Shown piece by piece: positions 1,916 through 37,805 of a DNA stretch of 64,000 bases. How positions within the stretch are numbered: the first letter of the stretch is position 1; the number at the start of each line of letters is the position of its first letter. Below the pieces are notes generated by a model. It did no database searches, was not told the DNA's origin, and was given only the letters and a program-made list of their open reading frames with translations. The translations under genes and the position numbers were made by a program. Source of the stretch: Escherichia phage vB_EcoM_VR25; sequence record NC_028925.1; one strand, written 5' to 3'.

Positions 1916-2001
1916 TCATACGCCCTCTTAAACCTTTTCGTATTCGTCGTTCAAGCTATTAAAAATCCGGATGTTCGTCATTCATTAACCTTCTCCAAAT
2001 C

Positions 2002-2205
2002 CTACCAGCGTTTCCACCATTTTTTAAGCTGGTGTGAATCAACCCACACCTTCGCTACTGGCTCAATCTGAAAAATACCGTCAGAATACTGGCCAATCAT
2101 TTTGTATTCGGTTTCGGTCTGCTTAATACAGATATTACCATATGAGCGAAGTCTGAAAGCGGCTCCAACAAGAAGCCGTTTAAAAGGTTTATTTACTAAT
2201 GCCAT
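2002..2205 (-). CDS. Hypothetical protein, 67 aa
   Basis: Track ORF in the 47-55 interval where T4 carries alpha-glucosyltransferase; no motif recognised. Confidence 0.4.
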   Translation of the reverse strand: MALVNKPFKRLLVGAAFRLRSYGNICIKQTETEYKMIGQYSDGIFQIEPVAKVWVDSHQLKKWWKRW

Positions 2206-2500
2206 TTACGATTTCCCAAATTTGCTTGCGAGTAGTTTCCCACATCAACTTAATCAGGTCTTCCGTAACTGGTTGGCGGTAAATTCCACGCAGTTTAACT
2301 AAAGCATATTTGTATGCTTCAAAATTGTTTTCCAGCACTGCCCCTTGAGCATGCTTATTCAGTCGTTCAATTTCACGAGCATTCTTTTTCAGAATCTTCG
2401 TGGCTTGGCTGGTAGCTTCGAGTGCGTTCGCTTCTTCGAGACGTTCCTGTGCTTCTTCAATCTGCTTATCGGTCAGTTGAGAAATATCTGGAGCTTGCAT
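2189..2500 (-). CDS. Hypothetical protein, 103 aa, predicted helical
   Basis: Track ORF; charged, coiled-coil-like composition; overlaps neighbours by a few codons. Confidence 0.45.
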   Translation of the reverse strand: MQAPDISQLTDKQIEEAQERLEEANALEATSQATKILKKNAREIERLNKHAQGAVLENNFEAYKYALVKLRGIYRQPVTEDLIKLMWETTRKQIWEIVNGISK

Positions 2501-2501
2501 A

Positions 2502-2753
2502 TTAATCCTTGGGAGTTAACTCAATTGTAAAATATAGATTAGCATTATCCACATGATAACGGTAATCAACGTTATTATCCGGTGAAGTAAATTCCAGATT
2601 CCGGACGTTTAAAGGGTCGATATCAATTGGAAGACCTTTTATGTCTCGCAGATAAAGTTTAATGAAATATGGGAGCGCTGTAAAGTCTTCCTCGATTTTA
2701 TCTAAAAAATCGGTAATATCAAATTGATGTTCCATATAAAAAATCCAAATCAC
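2502..2753 (-). CDS. Hypothetical protein, 83 aa (start may be an internal Met)
   Basis: Track ORF immediately downstream of gene 55; 5-prime end overlaps the gp55 stop. Confidence 0.4.
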
Positions 2754-3276
2754 CTTCTTTATCTTTGGCGCTCTTATCAGACCCTGGCGCTTTAACTAAG
2801 GAGGATTCGTACTGTGTCATTTTGTCATAGATGTCCTGGATAAATGTTTCGTCAGCCAGAGCCACCATATCGTCGTCACGTGAATCATACACGTTATGGA
2901 CGAAGTAGCTATATTTCTTTGCCATTTCTTTACGTTCTTTTTTGATACGCTGAACGAAAGCATTGAAGCAAGCCATTGTTATGTAAGCATGTGGATTATC
3001 GTATTTTGTTTCGTCGAAGTTATGAAGACCTTTTATTGCGGCCTCAATTCCGTCCGCTATCATTTCCTGCTTCCAAGATTGGGTATATCCTGAAAAGTTG
3101 AAACGTTTAGACAGACCTTCGGCTATAAGCATAATTGCCAGACCAATAACATCGTTCTGGCGAATAATTTTATTTGGGTCGGTGTTCGCATTCAGCTTCT
3201 GTTTCCACTCCGAAATAGCTTTCAGAAGCTCTTTATTATTTACATAGTTATTCTTGGTTAATTTAATTTCGTTCAT
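2719..3276 (-). CDS. 55: Late-transcription sigma factor gp55
   Basis: 185 aa, ATG start; ...[35 protein letters not shown]... nearly identical to T4 gp55 over most of its length. Confidence 0.95.
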
Positions 3277-5135: not shown

Positions 5136-5314
5136 AATTTAGGTCCTTTTGCAACTGTATTGAACAAGCTACGGTCACACACCATCAACGGAGCATCAGG
5201 CCATTTCAAAGGACGATACCATACATCTTGGTCAGTCACTTTGGTTACCTGTACAGGATAGCCATTTACCGAATAATACCGGTCAACTTTAATTTCTTTA
5301 TCTTGAACAACCAT
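5132..5314 (-). CDS. Hypothetical protein, 60 aa
   Basis: Track ORF; ATG at 5314 preceded by GAGGAAAACAAA leader of the conserved early-promoter cassette. Confidence 0.45.
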   Translation of the reverse strand: MVVQDKEIKVDRYYSVNGYPVQVTKVTDQDVWYRPLKWPDAPLMVCDRSLFNTVAKGPKL

Positions 5315-6776: not shown

Positions 6777-8590
6777 TGGTGTTTAACCCTATGCATGATT
6801 TCTTTATTTTTGCCGAGATTAAATCCGCGTTCGTTCGGGTTTCCAAGATAGCCGCATGTTCTTCTTATGGTGTTCATCTTTTTGGGGTCAGTTTCTCCAC
6901 AAATAGAACAAACAAATCCGTTTTCAGTAGGAGTCATTTCATGAGTACTTCCACATGTAAAACATTTATCCACTGGCATATTAACACCAAAATAATCTAA
7001 ATGCTGTGCAGCATAATCCCATACGGTCTCAAGACCTTTTAAATTGTTTTTCATGTCAGGTAATTCAACATAAGAAATGTGACCACCTGTCGCAATGAAA
7101 TGATATGGCGCTTCATGAGAAATCTTTTCAAACGGAGTAATATTTTTTTCTACTGAAACATGGAAACTGTTAGTGTACCATCCTTTATCGGTAACATCTT
7201 TTACACTTCCATATTTTTCTGTATCGAGTTTACAGAATCGATAACACAGGTTTTCAGCAGGAGTGGAGTACAGGCTAAAAGCGAATCCGGTTCTTTCAGT
7301 CCATTGTTTAAGACAAGCATTCATTTTAGTCAAAATTTCTTGTCCAATATCACGACCGACAAGAATATTCAATTCGTGAATACCAATGTATCCTAGGGAC
7401 ACTGAACTTCTACCGTTTTTAAATAACTCAATTATATCATCGTCGGGTTTAAGACGAACCCCGAATGCACCTTCTTGGTAAAGAATAGGGGCAACAGTCG
7501 CTTTAACTCCTTTTAAGGAATTAATTCTACACATCAAAGCTTCAAAACACAAATTCATTCGTTCATTGAATAATTCAACAAATTTCTGTTCATTGAATTG
7601 CGTTCCAATATAAGAATCTAATGCAATACGAGGAAGATTCAGTGTTACAACACCAAGATTATTACGTCCATCAAGAATTTCATTACCAGTCGAATCTTTC
7701 CATACGCTCAAGAAACTACGGCAACCCATTGGAGAAACAGGAACAGATGAGCCGGTGATAGCTTTATTGTTCTTAGCTGAAATAATATCAGGATACATCC
7801 TTTTGCTTGCACACTCTAGAGCAAGCTGCTTGATATCATAGTTCGGGTCGTCTTTATAAAGATTAACACCTTCTTCAACAAACATAACAAGCTTAGGGAA
7901 AATAGGAGTTATTCCATCACGACCAAGACCTTTAATACGATTTTTCAGAATTGCTTTCTGAATCATTCGTTCAGTCCAGTCAGTTCCCGTACCAAATGTA
8001 ATTGTCACAAAAGGGGTCTGTCCGTTTGAACTAAAGAGAGTGTTTACTTCATATTCATAAGCTTGGAATGCATCATATACATCTTTTTCTGTTTTAGATT
8101 GGGCATAATTCAACGCATCAGTGATTTGCCATTTTTCTGCATCCTCAATATGTTTTGCATAGGTGCGTTTAACATAAGGAGAAAATACTTTGTCTACATT
8201 AGCAAAAGTCGTTCCGCCATATTGGTGAGAAGCAACTTGTGCAGTAATTTGTGCCATAATTGCAGTAGCAACACCAATTGATTTAGGAGTTTCAATCTGT
8301 GCATTACCGAGCTTAAATCCGTTTTCAAGCATTCCTTTTAAATCTACTAAACAACAATTAGTAAATGGAAGAGCAGGGGAATAATCAATATCATGGAAAT
8401 GAATAATTCCGCTTTCATGTGCTTTCATAATAAAAGACGCGACCATATTTTTGGCAATGTGTTTAGATACAATACCAGCCATAAGGTCCCGTTGAGTTGG
8501 AAAAACACGAGAATCTTTATTAGCATTCTCGTTTAAAAGGTCTTTATTAGTTTTATGAATCAATCCTTCAATTTCTTTTTCAATTGTCAT
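6773..8590 (-). CDS. nrdD: Anaerobic ribonucleoside-triphosphate reductase NrdD, uninterrupted (no intron)
   Basis: 605 aa continuous ORF, ATG start; C-terminal glycyl-radical motif RRTCGYLG and Cys-rich zinc site; same length as spliced T4 NrdD. Confidence 0.95.
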   Translation of the reverse strand: MTIEKEIEGLIHKTNKDLLNENANKDSRVFPTQRDLMAGIVSKHIAKNMVASFIMKAHESGIIHFHDIDYSPALPFTNCCLVDLKGMLENGFKLGNAQIETPKSIGVATAIMAQITAQVASHQYGGTTFANVDKVFSPYVKRTYAKHIEDAEKWQITDALNYAQSKTEKDVYDAFQAYEYEVNTLFSSNGQTPFVTITFGTGTDWTERMIQKAILKNRIKGLGRDGITPIFPKLVMFVEEGVNLYKDDPNYDIKQLALECASKRMYPDIISAKNNKAITGSSVPVSPMGCRSFLSVWKDSTGNEILDGRNNLGVVTLNLPRIALDSYIGTQFNEQKFVELFNERMNLCFEALMCRINSLKGVKATVAPILYQEGAFGVRLKPDDDIIELFKNGRSSVSLGYIGIHELNILVGRDIGQEILTKMNACLKQWTERTGFAFSLYSTPAENLCYRFCKLDTEKYGSVKDVTDKGWYTNSFHVSVEKNITPFEKISHEAPYHFIATGGHISYVELPDMKNNLKGLETVWDYAAQHLDYFGVNMPVDKCFTCGSTHEMTPTENGFVCSICGETDPKKMNTIRRTCGYLGNPNERGFNLGKNKEIMHRVKHQ

Positions 8591-36067: not shown

Positions 36068-36493
36068 TTATTTTTGAGCTTTGCGGAAGTTGGAAGCATA
36101 AGACTGAACAACAGTCTTTTTGATATCATGGGTGGTAACCAGAACATCAATCAGAGCGCGGCGTGCTGCATTATCATTCATATCAATTTCTGCAAATGCC
36201 TGGAAGCAAATGTCACGGGCGTTACCAGATTTGGACTGGATTTTTTCTTCTTTAACTTCTTCAATTGGGAATTCAATCATTTCAGCTTGGATTAATTCAA
36301 TGATGGATTCTTTTGACTGTTTGGTGTTTACCTTCAGTTCAGAATTAAGGGACTTAGCGATGGCAACAATCTGGGTTGAAGTCAGATGGATAAGTGCATC
36401 TTCACGAATACAGATTTCACATACTTCGTCGGCAACCATTTTGTTAGTGATGCGGGTAACAGAGAATGCAGAGGTCAGGGTCAGAAAGTTCAT
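36068..36493 (-). CDS. Hypothetical protein, about 141 aa, C-terminal ...VQSYASNFRKAQK
   Basis: Internal Met (MNFLTLTSAF...) consistent with the promoter cassette at 36544-36574; paralogous C-terminus to 35172..35615. Confidence 0.45.
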   Translation of the reverse strand: MNFLTLTSAFSVTRITNKMVADEVCEICIREDALIHLTSTQIVAIAKSLNSELKVNTKQSKESIIELIQAEMIEFPIEEVKEEKIQSKSGNARDICFQAFAEIDMNDNAARRALIDVLVTTHDIKKTVVQSYASNFRKAQK

Positions 36494-36543
36494 TTTATTT
36501 CTCCAAAGTTTTGTTTGATTCAGTGTGTAACTCAGTATGGAAT

Positions 36544-36574
36544 CATTATGCACCCGGTCAATTCGGATGTACAC
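36544..36574 (-). promoter_or_regulatory. Early promoter cassette
   Basis: Minus strand GTGTAC-18 nt-CATAAT then leader GATTCCATACTGAGTTACACACTGAATC. Confidence 0.5.
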
Positions 36575-36610
36575 TACTTTTTGAAGAAAATTTCAAATTT
36601 ATTCGGGGTA

Positions 36611-36640
36611 TAAAAAAGCCCCAACCTTTCGGAAGGGGCT
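36611..36640 (-). terminator. Rho-independent terminator downstream of the tRNA/small-RNA region
   Basis: AGCCCC...GGGGCT stem (6 GC-rich bp, 12-nt loop) followed by U6 on the minus-strand transcript. Confidence 0.55.
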
Positions 36641-36689
36641 AAGCCTTGCGGCAACCTTGTCGGGGTTCCACCTGCTAGGCAAGTGTTTG

Positions 36690-36770
36690 TACGAAACGCC
36701 GGGATTTGAACCCGGTTATCAAGTAGTTGACGCTACTCAATATTTTTAAAAGGCCATATCTCGACCATAT
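36690..36770 (-). ncRNA. tRNA-like structured RNA candidate (non-canonical)
   Basis: Perfect T-arm-like CCGGG-TTCAAAT-CCCGG and a second 6-bp hairpin, but no acceptor stem or 7-nt anticodon loop could be folded; in an ORF-free 300-nt stretch. Confidence 0.25.
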
Positions 36771-36957
36771 CCGAACGTTCCGTCAAAAACGCCACTCGGC
36801 TTACGGCAAAGATATTTCCTCGAATCGTTAATTAGGTGCGCCGTTTCAGCTGTGAAATAAGGGACTTTAAGAGGTCAACTCATGTACGCCTTAAAATCGG
36901 GTCTTATTCAGGGAACTTCAGTCCGACGACTTACCGGTAGCGACCCGGCTTCTTGTT

Positions 36958-37033
36958 TGGTCGAGACAGTAGGGATCGAACCTACGACCTAGGACTTAGA
37001 AGGTCCTTGCTCTTCCTTCTGAGCTATGCCTCG
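36958..37033 (-). tRNA. tRNA-Arg (anticodon UCU), CCA encoded
   Basis: Hand-folded cloverleaf: acceptor CGAGGCA/TGTCTCG, D-stem GCTC/GAGC, anticodon stem AGGAC/GTCCT with loop CTTCTAA, T-arm GTAGG-TTCGATC-CCTAC, discriminator A. Confidence 0.85.
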
Positions 37034-37167
37034 TGTTTGTTCATAGCGGGGTGGACTCGAACCACCAATATTAAGTCACTCATGCTCCAAGCATGCTAGG
37101 GCACTTACCCCGGACGGAATCGAACCGCATCTACAATACCTATCGCCATGATAATTTAAAATAAGTT
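37034..37167 (-). ncRNA. tRNA-like structured RNA region between the two tRNAs (non-canonical)
   Basis: Two T-arm-like motifs (GCGG-TTCGATT-CCGT and GGTGG-TTCGAGT-CCACC) and an anticodon-like hairpin CATG-CTTGGAG-CATG, but no consistent 7-bp acceptor stem. Confidence 0.25.
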
Positions 37168-37241
37168 TGGTGGCCCTGGGTGGAATCGAACCACCATCCA
37201 GCGATTATGAGTCGCTCGCTTGACCGTCCAGCTACAGGGCC
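37168..37241 (-). tRNA. tRNA with CAU anticodon (Met, or Ile if C34 is modified), CCA encoded
   Basis: Hand-folded cloverleaf: acceptor GGCCCTG/CAGGGCC, anticodon stem AGCGA/TCGCT with loop CTCATAA, T-arm GGTGG-TTCGATT-CCACC, discriminator A. Confidence 0.8.
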
Positions 37242-37319
37242 TTAATTCTATTATGAAAGGCTCTTTGAGGGAAGAACCTTTGGTAATAGAGGGTACTTAT
37301 TAATAATAACGCGTTTTTA

Positions 37320-37805
37320 TTAAAGCATATCAAGTGCTTTAACGTTCGGAATTTGGATTTCTTCTTCGATGATGTATAATTTTACCCACGAAACTACGCG
37401 CATAAAATCGCTATCATATTCCACTGGCTCGCCCAGTAATTCCTGGAGAGAATATAATAATTCAAATTCCTGGTCATTGTCACCTTCAACCAGGTTTTCC
37501 AGATTTTCAATACAAAGTGTTTTGTTAATGAATTCAGAAGTTAATTGACCAGATTTTACACCAGATTCAATGTGTGCGATAACCAAGTCTTTAACTACGT
37601 CCCATTCCGAATTGCCACATTTATCTGGATAGTTACAATGAGAACCTTGAAAAAGTTCCAGGATATATTTGTACTGCTGGATTTCTTGTTCTTCTACACC
37701 AAATATTGTCTGGGTTTTATAGTTGTCACCATCATTTTCCCAGGTTTCAATTTCAATCACATAACCTTTAGGGATGGTCTGACCAAATTTAATATTCATA
37801 ATCAA
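37320..37805 (-). CDS. Hypothetical acidic protein, 161 aa
   Basis: Track ORF. Confidence 0.5.
   Translation of the reverse strand: MIMNIKFGQTIPKGYVIEIETWENDGDNYKTQTIFGVEEQEIQQYKYILELFQGSHCNYPDKCGNSEWDVVKDLVIAHIESGVKSGQLTSEFINKTLCIENLENLVEGDNDQEFELLYSLQELLGEPVEYDSDFMRVVSWVKLYIIEEEIQIPNVKALDML

Follow-up and report, generated by a model that had tools for sequence, protein, structure and literature searches.

A conserved, covarying tRNA-like RNA with two T-arms in the tRNA cluster of a T4-like Escherichia phage

The DNA analysed here, a 64,000-nucleotide (nt) stretch of Escherichia phage vB_EcoM_VR25 (NC_028925.1) which we call the window, carries on its minus strand a small cluster of stable-RNA genes (Table 1). 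Two transfer RNA (tRNA) genes frame a spacer which encodes a 110-nt structured RNA with two tRNA-type T-arms, hereafter the twin-T-arm RNA, and they are followed downstream by orthologues of the phage T4 stable RNAs RNA D and RNA C (genes rnaD and rnaC) and by a terminator. The closest relatives of the region are Dhakavirus-type T4-like phages (TH22 and TH15 at ~95%, also VR5), and the annotation of VR5 shows an identical layout between its e.6-side genes and trna.2-4. Over the whole window ARAGORN called exactly two tRNA genes, which share the minus strand. Besides these two, Rfam gave zero matches at gathering score over the whole window, and a permissive search of 36400-37400 returned extra matches at chance level only. 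The first-pass annotation, made by eye on the letters, had folded the same two tRNAs and suggested such tRNA-finder and covariance-model searches for any that it had missed; none was added, and the CCA ends that it reported for both can be read in the sequence. We also counted four copies of the T-loop motif GGTTCRANTCC in the 64 kilobases (kb), where 0.12 would be expected by chance, all of them within 36702-37192: one in the tRNA with a CAU anticodon, one in rnaC and two in the spacer. T-arm-like hairpins had indeed been noticed outside the tRNAs, together with a lack of open reading frames (ORFs), and on the transcribed strand no ORF of at least 30 amino acids (aa) lies wholly inside 36575-37231. 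A 33-aa TTG ORF (37232-37333) clips the first bases of the CAU tRNA at its 5′ end, and the opposite strand of the region holds only mechanical ORFs of 30-75 aa.

Table 1. Features of the stable-RNA cluster (window positions, listed in the direction of transcription) and further lineages of the twin-T-arm RNA
Feature	Position	Strand	Basis, sequence or score
tRNA with CAU anticodon, tRNA-Ile2-like	37168-37241	minus	encoded CCA; ARAGORN; Rfam tRNA 62.6 bits
AT-rich spacer, 17 nt, between CAU tRNA and twin-T-arm RNA	37151-37167	minus	sequence
Twin-T-arm tRNA-like RNA, 110 nt including discriminator-like A at 37041	37041-37150	minus	covariance, homologues
P1, acceptor-like stem of 7 base pairs (bp)	37144-37150 paired with 37042-37048	minus	
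Conserved GG just after P1 5′ strand	37139-37140	minus	
T-arm 1 (H1)	37114-37128	minus	GCGG UUCGAUU CCGU
H2, hairpin capped by tetraloop	37098-37111	minus	
H3, D-like 5-bp hairpin	37081-37095	minus	loop UUGGA
Invariant GACUUA, in linker	37072-37077	minus	
T-arm 2	37050-37066	minus	GGUGG UUCGAGU CCACC
Bulged C between T-arm 2 and P1 3′ strand	37049	minus	
tRNA-Arg(UCU)	36958-37033	minus	encoded CCA; ARAGORN; Rfam tRNA 66 bits
rnaD orthologue (T4 species 2 RNA), 122 nt	36835-36956	minus	alignment to RB55 rnaD, 68% identity
rnaC orthologue (T4 species 1 RNA), 139 nt	36690-36828	minus	alignment to RB55 rnaC, 96% identity
3′ trailer, then intrinsic terminator	36612-36689	minus	hairpin 36618-36639, U-run 36612-36617; sequence
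Further lineage L120/L219			74.6 bits
Further lineage L171/L257			73.7 bits
Further lineage L269			70.9 bits
Further lineage L265			64.4 bits
Further lineage L192/L254/L261			64.3 bits
Further lineage L266			64.1 bits
Further lineage L268			60.7 bits
Further lineage L259			56.7 bits
Further lineage L267			56.6 bits
Further lineage L308, Roseburia metagenome-assembled genome (MAG)	5200-5310 (own contig)		48.9 bits, model R2

The fold of the twin-T-arm RNA was derived from an alignment of 20 distinct sequences. From 5′ to 3′ it runs through the first strand of P1, a linker with the conserved GG, T-arm 1, H2, a 2-nt linker, H3, the linker holding GACUUA, T-arm 2, the bulged C and the second strand of P1. 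The family consensus reads UUGGW in the H3 loop and GGUGG UUCGAKU CCAYC in T-arm 2, with a GNRA loop on H2 in G7C-type copies, and the linkers around H2 (1-2 nt between H1 and H2, 2 nt between H2 and H3) are as in tRNA. P1 and the adjoining T-arm 2, separated by the one-base C bulge, present an acceptor stem followed by a T-arm with a G53/UUCRANY/C61 loop, as expected of a tRNA, and T-arm 1 is a second copy of this T-arm. None of the covarying hairpins carries a 7-nt anticodon-type loop, their loops being of 4, 5 and 7 nt and the 7-nt ones being T-loops. Thus the first-pass annotation had rightly found no anticodon loop in the spacer, but its statement that the segments outside the two tRNAs have no valid acceptor stem does not hold: the spacer RNA has the covarying 7-bp P1, and rnaC has a closing stem. 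In the modelled fold, P1 stacked on a canonical T-arm makes up the ‘top half’ of a tRNA with an open acceptor end. The inner module, composed of a T-arm, a tetraloop-capped stem, a 2-nt linker and a D-like hairpin with GG, is connected in the model like a circularly permuted tRNA, and the second conserved GG, just after P1, could dock on the outer T-loop, which would allow two tRNA-like elbows.

We then examined the covariation behind this fold, with alignments in which pairing partners were slid as controls. With a plain MAFFT alignment, 96.9% of pair cells were standard pairs, compared with 38-59% in the slid controls; 7 pairs were changed on both sides and the covariation score reached 0.287, against at most 0.083 for the controls. 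RNAalifold, run without a given structure, recovered P1, T-arm 1, H3 and T-arm 2. The values rose in a 32-sequence alignment fitted to the model, with 95.0% of cells paired (41-56% when slid), 25 of the 31 pairs changed on both sides and a covariation score of 0.624 (at most 0.157 when slid). P1 covaried at every position in this alignment and is a closing stem without conserved sequence. In a set of five T4-like sequences, nearly all substitutions were located in stems and preserved pairing, the linkers being unchanged; P1 alone appeared as CAUGGCG/CGCUAUG, CACGGCG/CGCUGUG and UACAGCG/CGCUGUA. The covariation-supported fold, taken without a tentative additional helix (P2, see below), lies less than 2 kcal/mol from the minimum free energy. 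The 110-nt element is a member of a conserved, covarying RNA family.

A covariance model of the family (R1) recognises the window copy at 37040-37150 with 108.8 bits (E 6e-27). By blastn, the segment 37030-37170 is 100% identical in VR5, TH15 and TH22, 98.6% in another Dhakavirus, TH40, and 95-98% in the Kanagawaviruses PEi20, PEi26 and KLB31 and the Karamvirus CkP1. The element is also present, at about 79% identity with a range of 76-81%, in 28 records of N4-like Gamaleyavirus phages (G7C, EC1-UPM, pSb-1 and St11Ph5 among them), which belong to an unrelated family, and at the same level in 9 metagenome contigs. Among the T4-like carriers it is 95-100% identical while the adjacent CAU tRNAs differ widely. 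It was unannotated in all GenBank records inspected or listed. T4 has no counterpart in the spacer slot, where the T4-type phage RB55 has only segB, and phages of SP18/JS98 type have a tRNA-Asn there, between their CAU and Arg tRNAs.

Divergent members were sought in the IMG/VR collection with patterns for two closely spaced T-loops, the matches being filtered by R1 and a further model, R2. About ten further lineages were obtained (Table 1), which have the same architecture with every stem different in sequence and, in most, the bulged C. Searches by blastn with two of them (L120 and L192) matched no cultured phage, and a third (L171) gave only a 26-nt T-arm match in cluster-L mycobacteriophages. 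No copy was found in 5,426 complete Escherichia coli genomes, so a host origin in E. coli is unsupported; an earlier scan of bacterial genomes with a specific pattern was also empty. A pattern tuned to the family matches 97 bacterial genome or MAG contigs (L276-L355), many of them from Saccharibacteria/Patescibacteria and Clostridia, which may represent prophages, contamination or cellular sequence. The matches listed for generic double-T-loop scans are heterogeneous, including tandem tRNAs and other odd tRNA-like loci, and are mostly non-members.

Regarding its genomic position, only 2-17 nt separate the element from the end of a preceding tRNA in the window and in KLB31, PEi20, L008, L265 and L269. 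In the Kanagawaviruses it begins, according to the alignment, just 2 nt past the CCA of tRNA-Ile2, the equivalent of the 17-nt spacer of the window. The tRNA upstream of members that lie inside tRNA clusters is often tRNA-Arg(UCU) or tRNA(CAU). The element is independent of such clusters, because in L120, a 33.6-kb uncultivated phage contig, it fills a short gap between two ORFs (8170-8300) and zero tRNAs were found in the 14.5 kb examined. In G7C it lies within a 1.2-kb non-coding stretch, is encoded on the strand of the genes that precede it and is followed by an annotated terminator. This Gamaleyavirus non-coding region of ~1.2 kb extends from gp47.2 to the terminator (positions 1937-3126 of the G7C locus); the twin-T-arm RNA is one part of it and the rest gave no Rfam match.

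Known RNA families were compared next. With Rfam 15 at gathering and E-value thresholds, the element alone, its G7C copy, four related loci and the window gave only tRNAs or chance matches. The Rfam tRNA model (RF00005) did not match the window copy at E up to 10 and scored the G7C copy at 17.4 bits against a threshold of 29, and ARAGORN called no tRNA or transfer-messenger RNA (tmRNA) over 37041-37150. A canonical tRNA at these positions was rejected: none of the covarying hairpins has the anticodon-type loop of 7 nt which, on a 5-bp stem, a cloverleaf requires, and the score is below the Rfam threshold. Lacking an anticodon loop of 7 nt and rejected by the tRNA model, the element is not a decoding tRNA. 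Identity with tmRNA was likewise rejected, as the only Rfam tmRNA matches are bare T-loops of 5-9 bits. Even with E up to 10 and as little as 121-131 nt searched, the Rfam model of YrlA RNAs (RF02553) gave no match to the element; its only weak match in the region, at 14.5 bits against a threshold of 69, spans T-arm 2 and the start of tRNA-Arg. A YrlA match across a T-arm and the start of a neighbouring tRNA is a known tandem-tRNA artefact. Finally, R1 matches neither rnaC nor rnaD in the window.

Could the spacer be a dead remnant of one or two tRNA genes, such as a fused dimer that lost its anticodon arms, kept without function by the transcribed cluster? The first-pass annotation had offered decay as one reading of it, and some features agree with this: both T-arms are exactly tRNA-like, ‘UAGC...GG’ resembles a D-arm, the slot is variable among phages (segB in RB55, tRNA-Asn in SP18/JS98-type phages), and parts of some members are called by ARAGORN as odd tRNAs, for instance Leu(aag) in L171. 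However, a pseudogene would not retain its pairing through compensatory changes in 25 of 31 pairs over about a dozen lineages. Nor is 95-100% identity across genera expected of it while the neighbouring true tRNAs diverged, and the same covarying RNA stands alone between protein genes in L120 and recurs in the unrelated N4-like phages. We therefore consider a remnant unlikely and drop decay as the explanation of the spacer. A selection acting on DNA, with the element as homing-endonuclease target, insertion site or recombination hotspot that spreads between phages, would account for the near-identity across genera, which suggests lateral transfer, and for the homing-endonuclease genes in or beside the slot (segB in RB55, an endonuclease upstream in CkP1, an HNH gene near the G7C region). 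It does not predict strand-specific compensatory changes, G-U pairs included, in six helices. Spread driven by an endonuclease is moreover compatible with a functional RNA as cargo and does not replace an RNA explanation; a DNA site thus appears very unlikely.

Two alternatives make the element a functional RNA of known type. Its inner module has the order of the YrlA tRNA-like domain, in which a T stem-loop, an acceptor-like stem-loop and a D stem-loop follow one another inside a closing helix (PMC4201824), here as H1, H2 and H3. YrlA-like RNAs have been reported in phages, and the YrlA of Mycobacterium smegmatis is a substrate of RNase P and is extended with CCA (PMC4201824). The element could then be a phage Y RNA of the YrlA family which binds Ro60 (Rsr) and tethers it to an exoribonuclease. 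We find this quite improbable given the silence of RF02553, a closing stem that covaries freely and has no conserved Ro-binding sequence, and the second T-arm, which YrlA does not possess; no Ro60 gene was noticed beside any copy, though no search for one was made. That standard tools overlook a genuine tRNA here, decoding or charged but oddly shaped (with an intron, permuted or similar to tmRNA), is in our opinion highly implausible. Such a tRNA would fit the 7-bp acceptor stem, the T-arm and the discriminator-like A, and the want of an encoded CCA is shared by several T4 tRNAs (the T4-type CAU tRNA ends without CCA). Against this, the only 7-nt loops are T-loops, ARAGORN finds no tRNA or tmRNA, the Rfam tRNA score stays under 29 bits, and, because P1 covaries at every position, there is no fixed G3:U70 or other acceptor identity pair.

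The explanation that we hold as most likely, and as a whole probable, is that the cluster forms one minus-strand stable-RNA transcription unit of a T4-like, Dhakavirus-type phage (tRNA-Ile2(CAU), the 110-nt twin-T-arm RNA, tRNA-Arg(UCU), RNA D, RNA C, terminator) and that the element, once excised from the tRNA precursor, serves as a mimic of tRNA that does not decode. It would be co-transcribed with its neighbouring tRNAs. Since an acceptor/T-arm minihelix is a sufficient RNase P substrate, RNase P would be expected to free its 5′ end at C37150 from the polycistronic precursor; the 3′ end would be trimmed, with CCA possibly added, and the T-loops may be modified as they are in tRNA. The two T-loops, together with the two conserved GG (after P1 and in the H3 loop), could then build the two elbows. 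Having no anticodon, the RNA would act by its shape, persisting as a mimic that binds or titrates a factor which recognises the acceptor or elbow of tRNA. Candidates for this factor are a host tRNA-directed enzyme, a toxin, a defence protein or, in the manner of Y RNAs, an RNA-processing factor, and any particular partner is much less likely than the explanation as a whole.

Several points weigh against this explanation. Taken singly, the window sequence folds with a stability no greater than that of its shuffles (z = -0.8 to -1.0), so that the case rests on covariation. The broad alignments were themselves fitted to the model, which favours the model's own structure, and the distant members were found by patterns requiring both T-loop motifs and TAAG, the conservation of those letters being partly built in. 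Near-identity among the T4-like phages could partly come from recent lateral transfer and not from constraint. The additional helix P2 (GGUA/UAUU) is tentative: it is 84% paired and, in the window sequence, unfavourable by 4 kcal/mol. A different pairing of the linkers (AAGU/ACUU), judged by eye on model-fitted rows, fits some lineages and not the window copy. Lastly, the two lowest-scoring rows of the broad alignments, L284 and L255, overlap ARAGORN tRNA calls and are not to be counted as members.

Both tRNAs of the cluster are canonical and belong to ordinary, already-known biology. The first-pass annotation had left the CAU tRNA as Met, or Ile if modified, and comparison of sequences favours the latter: it is tRNA-Ile2-like, as opposed to Met, and would read AUA by way of lysidine. 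Over its full length, complete E. coli genomes match it best in a gene with a CAT anticodon annotated by PGAP as tRNA-Ile, with 55 of 77 columns identical in a gapped alignment (80.5% by blastn). The acceptor stems of the two are almost identical, the run AGCGAGCGACTCATAATCGC, which covers the anticodon loop and its stem minus the last base, is identical in both, and the homologue in phage KLB31 is annotated as tRNA-Ile2. The tRNA-Arg(UCU) of the window has 53% identity with the T4-type tRNA-Arg, the common parts being only the anticodon loop and the T-arm, while the 5′ end of rnaD, immediately downstream, is nearly identical to the T4 type. This difference between adjoining segments suggests, at the level of sequence, that the tRNA-Arg gene was swapped and its neighbours were retained.

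Downstream of tRNA-Arg, 36690-36956 encodes the orthologues of T4 RNA D and RNA C, which is already-known biology. This follows from the identities to RB55 given in Table 1, the order after tRNA-Arg and the same terminator: RB55 has eight tRNAs, then rnaD and rnaC, with segB between its CAU tRNA and tRNA-Arg, and the succession tRNA-Arg, rnaD, rnaC and terminator is common to RB55 and the window. Thus, where the first-pass annotation had proposed counterparts of the T4 stable RNAs for both tRNA-like segments, this applies to the downstream ~300 nt and fails for the spacer, T4 having only segB there. By blastn the downstream ~300 nt match 802 phage records, those listed being T4-like, and the stretch is annotated as rnaC, rnaD and terminator in RB55, ATK47 and Kha5h. 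It also folds better than its shuffles (z = -3.7). In rnaD the 5′ third and the 3′ end are kept and the middle has diverged. In rnaC the fold consists of a long hairpin, another of 8 bp with a loop of 6 nt, and a T-arm-like one (36699-36715) adjoined by a closing stem, and toward its 5′ end rnaC is nearly the same as the RNAC probe sequence for Northern blots given in PMC9697503. The site homologous to the terminator is annotated as such in PhAPEC2, vB_EcoM_112 and Kha5h; the hairpin at 36618-36639 was overlooked by a simple terminator scan because of a 2x2 internal mismatch. In T4 itself, RNA C and RNA D accumulate as stable processed RNAs by Northern blot and RNA-seq (PMC9697503), and their function is called unknown in a review and in recent omics work (PMC3014915, PMC9697503). 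An evolution study reported a convergent single-nucleotide polymorphism in rnaD during adaptation to a semi-permissive host (PMC12685909); the higher divergence of rnaD than of rnaC in the window (68% and 96% identity to T4-type) agrees with rnaD being reported there as the variable one. Many GenBank records of T4-like phages place ‘hypothetical protein’ coding sequences over rnaC and rnaD (SP18gp150 for example), which are probably gene-caller artefacts.

Some neighbouring and related loci were noticed in addition. In CkP1 (2603-3275 of its locus) a tRNA 3′ remnant (…GGGGCCACCA) lies directly upstream of the element and is preceded by a gene for a 211-aa endonuclease (phrog_15137, E 7e-40); by analogy with segB in the same slot of T4, this looks like a homing-endonuclease insertion that truncated a tRNA. 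In the PhAPEC5 and Moonfish loci (L140 23-101 and L137 17-95), an odd tRNA-Ile(aat) of 79 nt, called by ARAGORN, follows the element at a distance of ~200 nt, and in PhAPEC7 a matching feature is annotated ‘tRNA-Xle’. More than 100 viral contigs of IMG/VR (L151-L248) hold two canonical T-loops 44-58 nt apart, too close for tandem tRNAs. Most of them have no ARAGORN tRNA and they are heterogeneous (e.g. L198 4643-4720 and L178 4681-4782); in L198 a half-unit occurs twice inside a closing stem of 15 bp. The diversity of phage tRNA-like RNAs appears to go far beyond what current annotation shows. In Mycobacterium phage LeBron (L250 933-2710), the gene of the 472-aa ‘RNA-binding protein’ gp53 is followed by an unannotated gap of 360 nt in which 26 nt agree exactly with the T-arm and acceptor end of L171. 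R1 had no match in this locus with E up to 1, an Rfam scan that covers YrlA reached the gathering score for no family, and the gap could be a different Y-RNA-like locus.

The part of this cluster that appears new is the 110-nt RNA, for which Rfam 15 has no matching family and the inspected GenBank records have no annotation. Phage tRNA clusters are usually read as sets of tRNAs for codon supply or anti-defence, and what tRNA finders reject is left blank, or, for the adjoining stable-RNA stretch, is filled with ‘hypothetical protein’ genes by some pipelines. One such blank turns out to be a conserved covarying RNA common to T4-like, N4-like and many uncultivated phages. It is a small, deletable candidate for studying non-decoding tRNA mimicry by phages, its covariance model could serve to annotate it in phage genomes, and T4 RNAs C and D gain a wider context. 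More tentatively, the twin-T-arm RNA may be the first representative of a class of non-coding RNAs, widespread in phages and as yet undescribed, with two elbows, an open acceptor end and no anticodon. Such RNAs might decoy or sequester a host factor sensitive to the shape of tRNA (a defence toxin directed at tRNA, for instance, or an enzyme that processes or modifies it), or might be Ro-independent scaffolds of Y-RNA type. We regard this as possible but doubtful; were it true, T4 RNA C and RNA D could be analogous in function, and the 50-year-old puzzle of their role would become approachable.

Compared with known systems, the twin-T-arm RNA shares with T4 RNA C and RNA D its non-coding nature and its place in a tRNA cluster, and with RNA C a closing stem adjoining a T-arm-like hairpin. 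It differs from them in that neither sequence nor model similarity links them, T4 has no twin-T-arm RNA, and RNA C has one T-arm in place of two canonical ones. Its architecture, the top half of a tRNA around a permuted tRNA module, ties it to the bacterial Y RNAs: as in YrlA, a permuted tRNA-like module is closed by a helix of distant strands, the D-arm carries GG and there is no anticodon loop. YrlA sits next to rsr and the twin-T-arm RNA in tRNA clusters, and the latter has no Ro-binding helix and has an extra outer acceptor stem and a second T-arm. Thus it resembles the YrlA module in architecture and is not a member of the YrlA family, given that the YrlA model does not match, that its closing stem is unconserved and that YrlA has neither the outer acceptor stem nor the second T-arm. 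The tRNA-like domain of tmRNA likewise has an acceptor stem on a T-arm, a D-arm reduced to a GG strand and other structure replacing the anticodon arm; tmRNA, in contrast, is ~360 nt long with a tag reading frame, pseudoknots and G3:U70, none of which is present in the 110 nt of the element. Finally, the element is set apart from phage tRNAs by two T-arms without an anticodon arm, a length of 105-117 nt and its rejection by tRNA finders, and shares with them the same clusters, the same T-arm sequence, the 7-bp acceptor stem and the 2-17-nt spacing to a neighbour tRNA.

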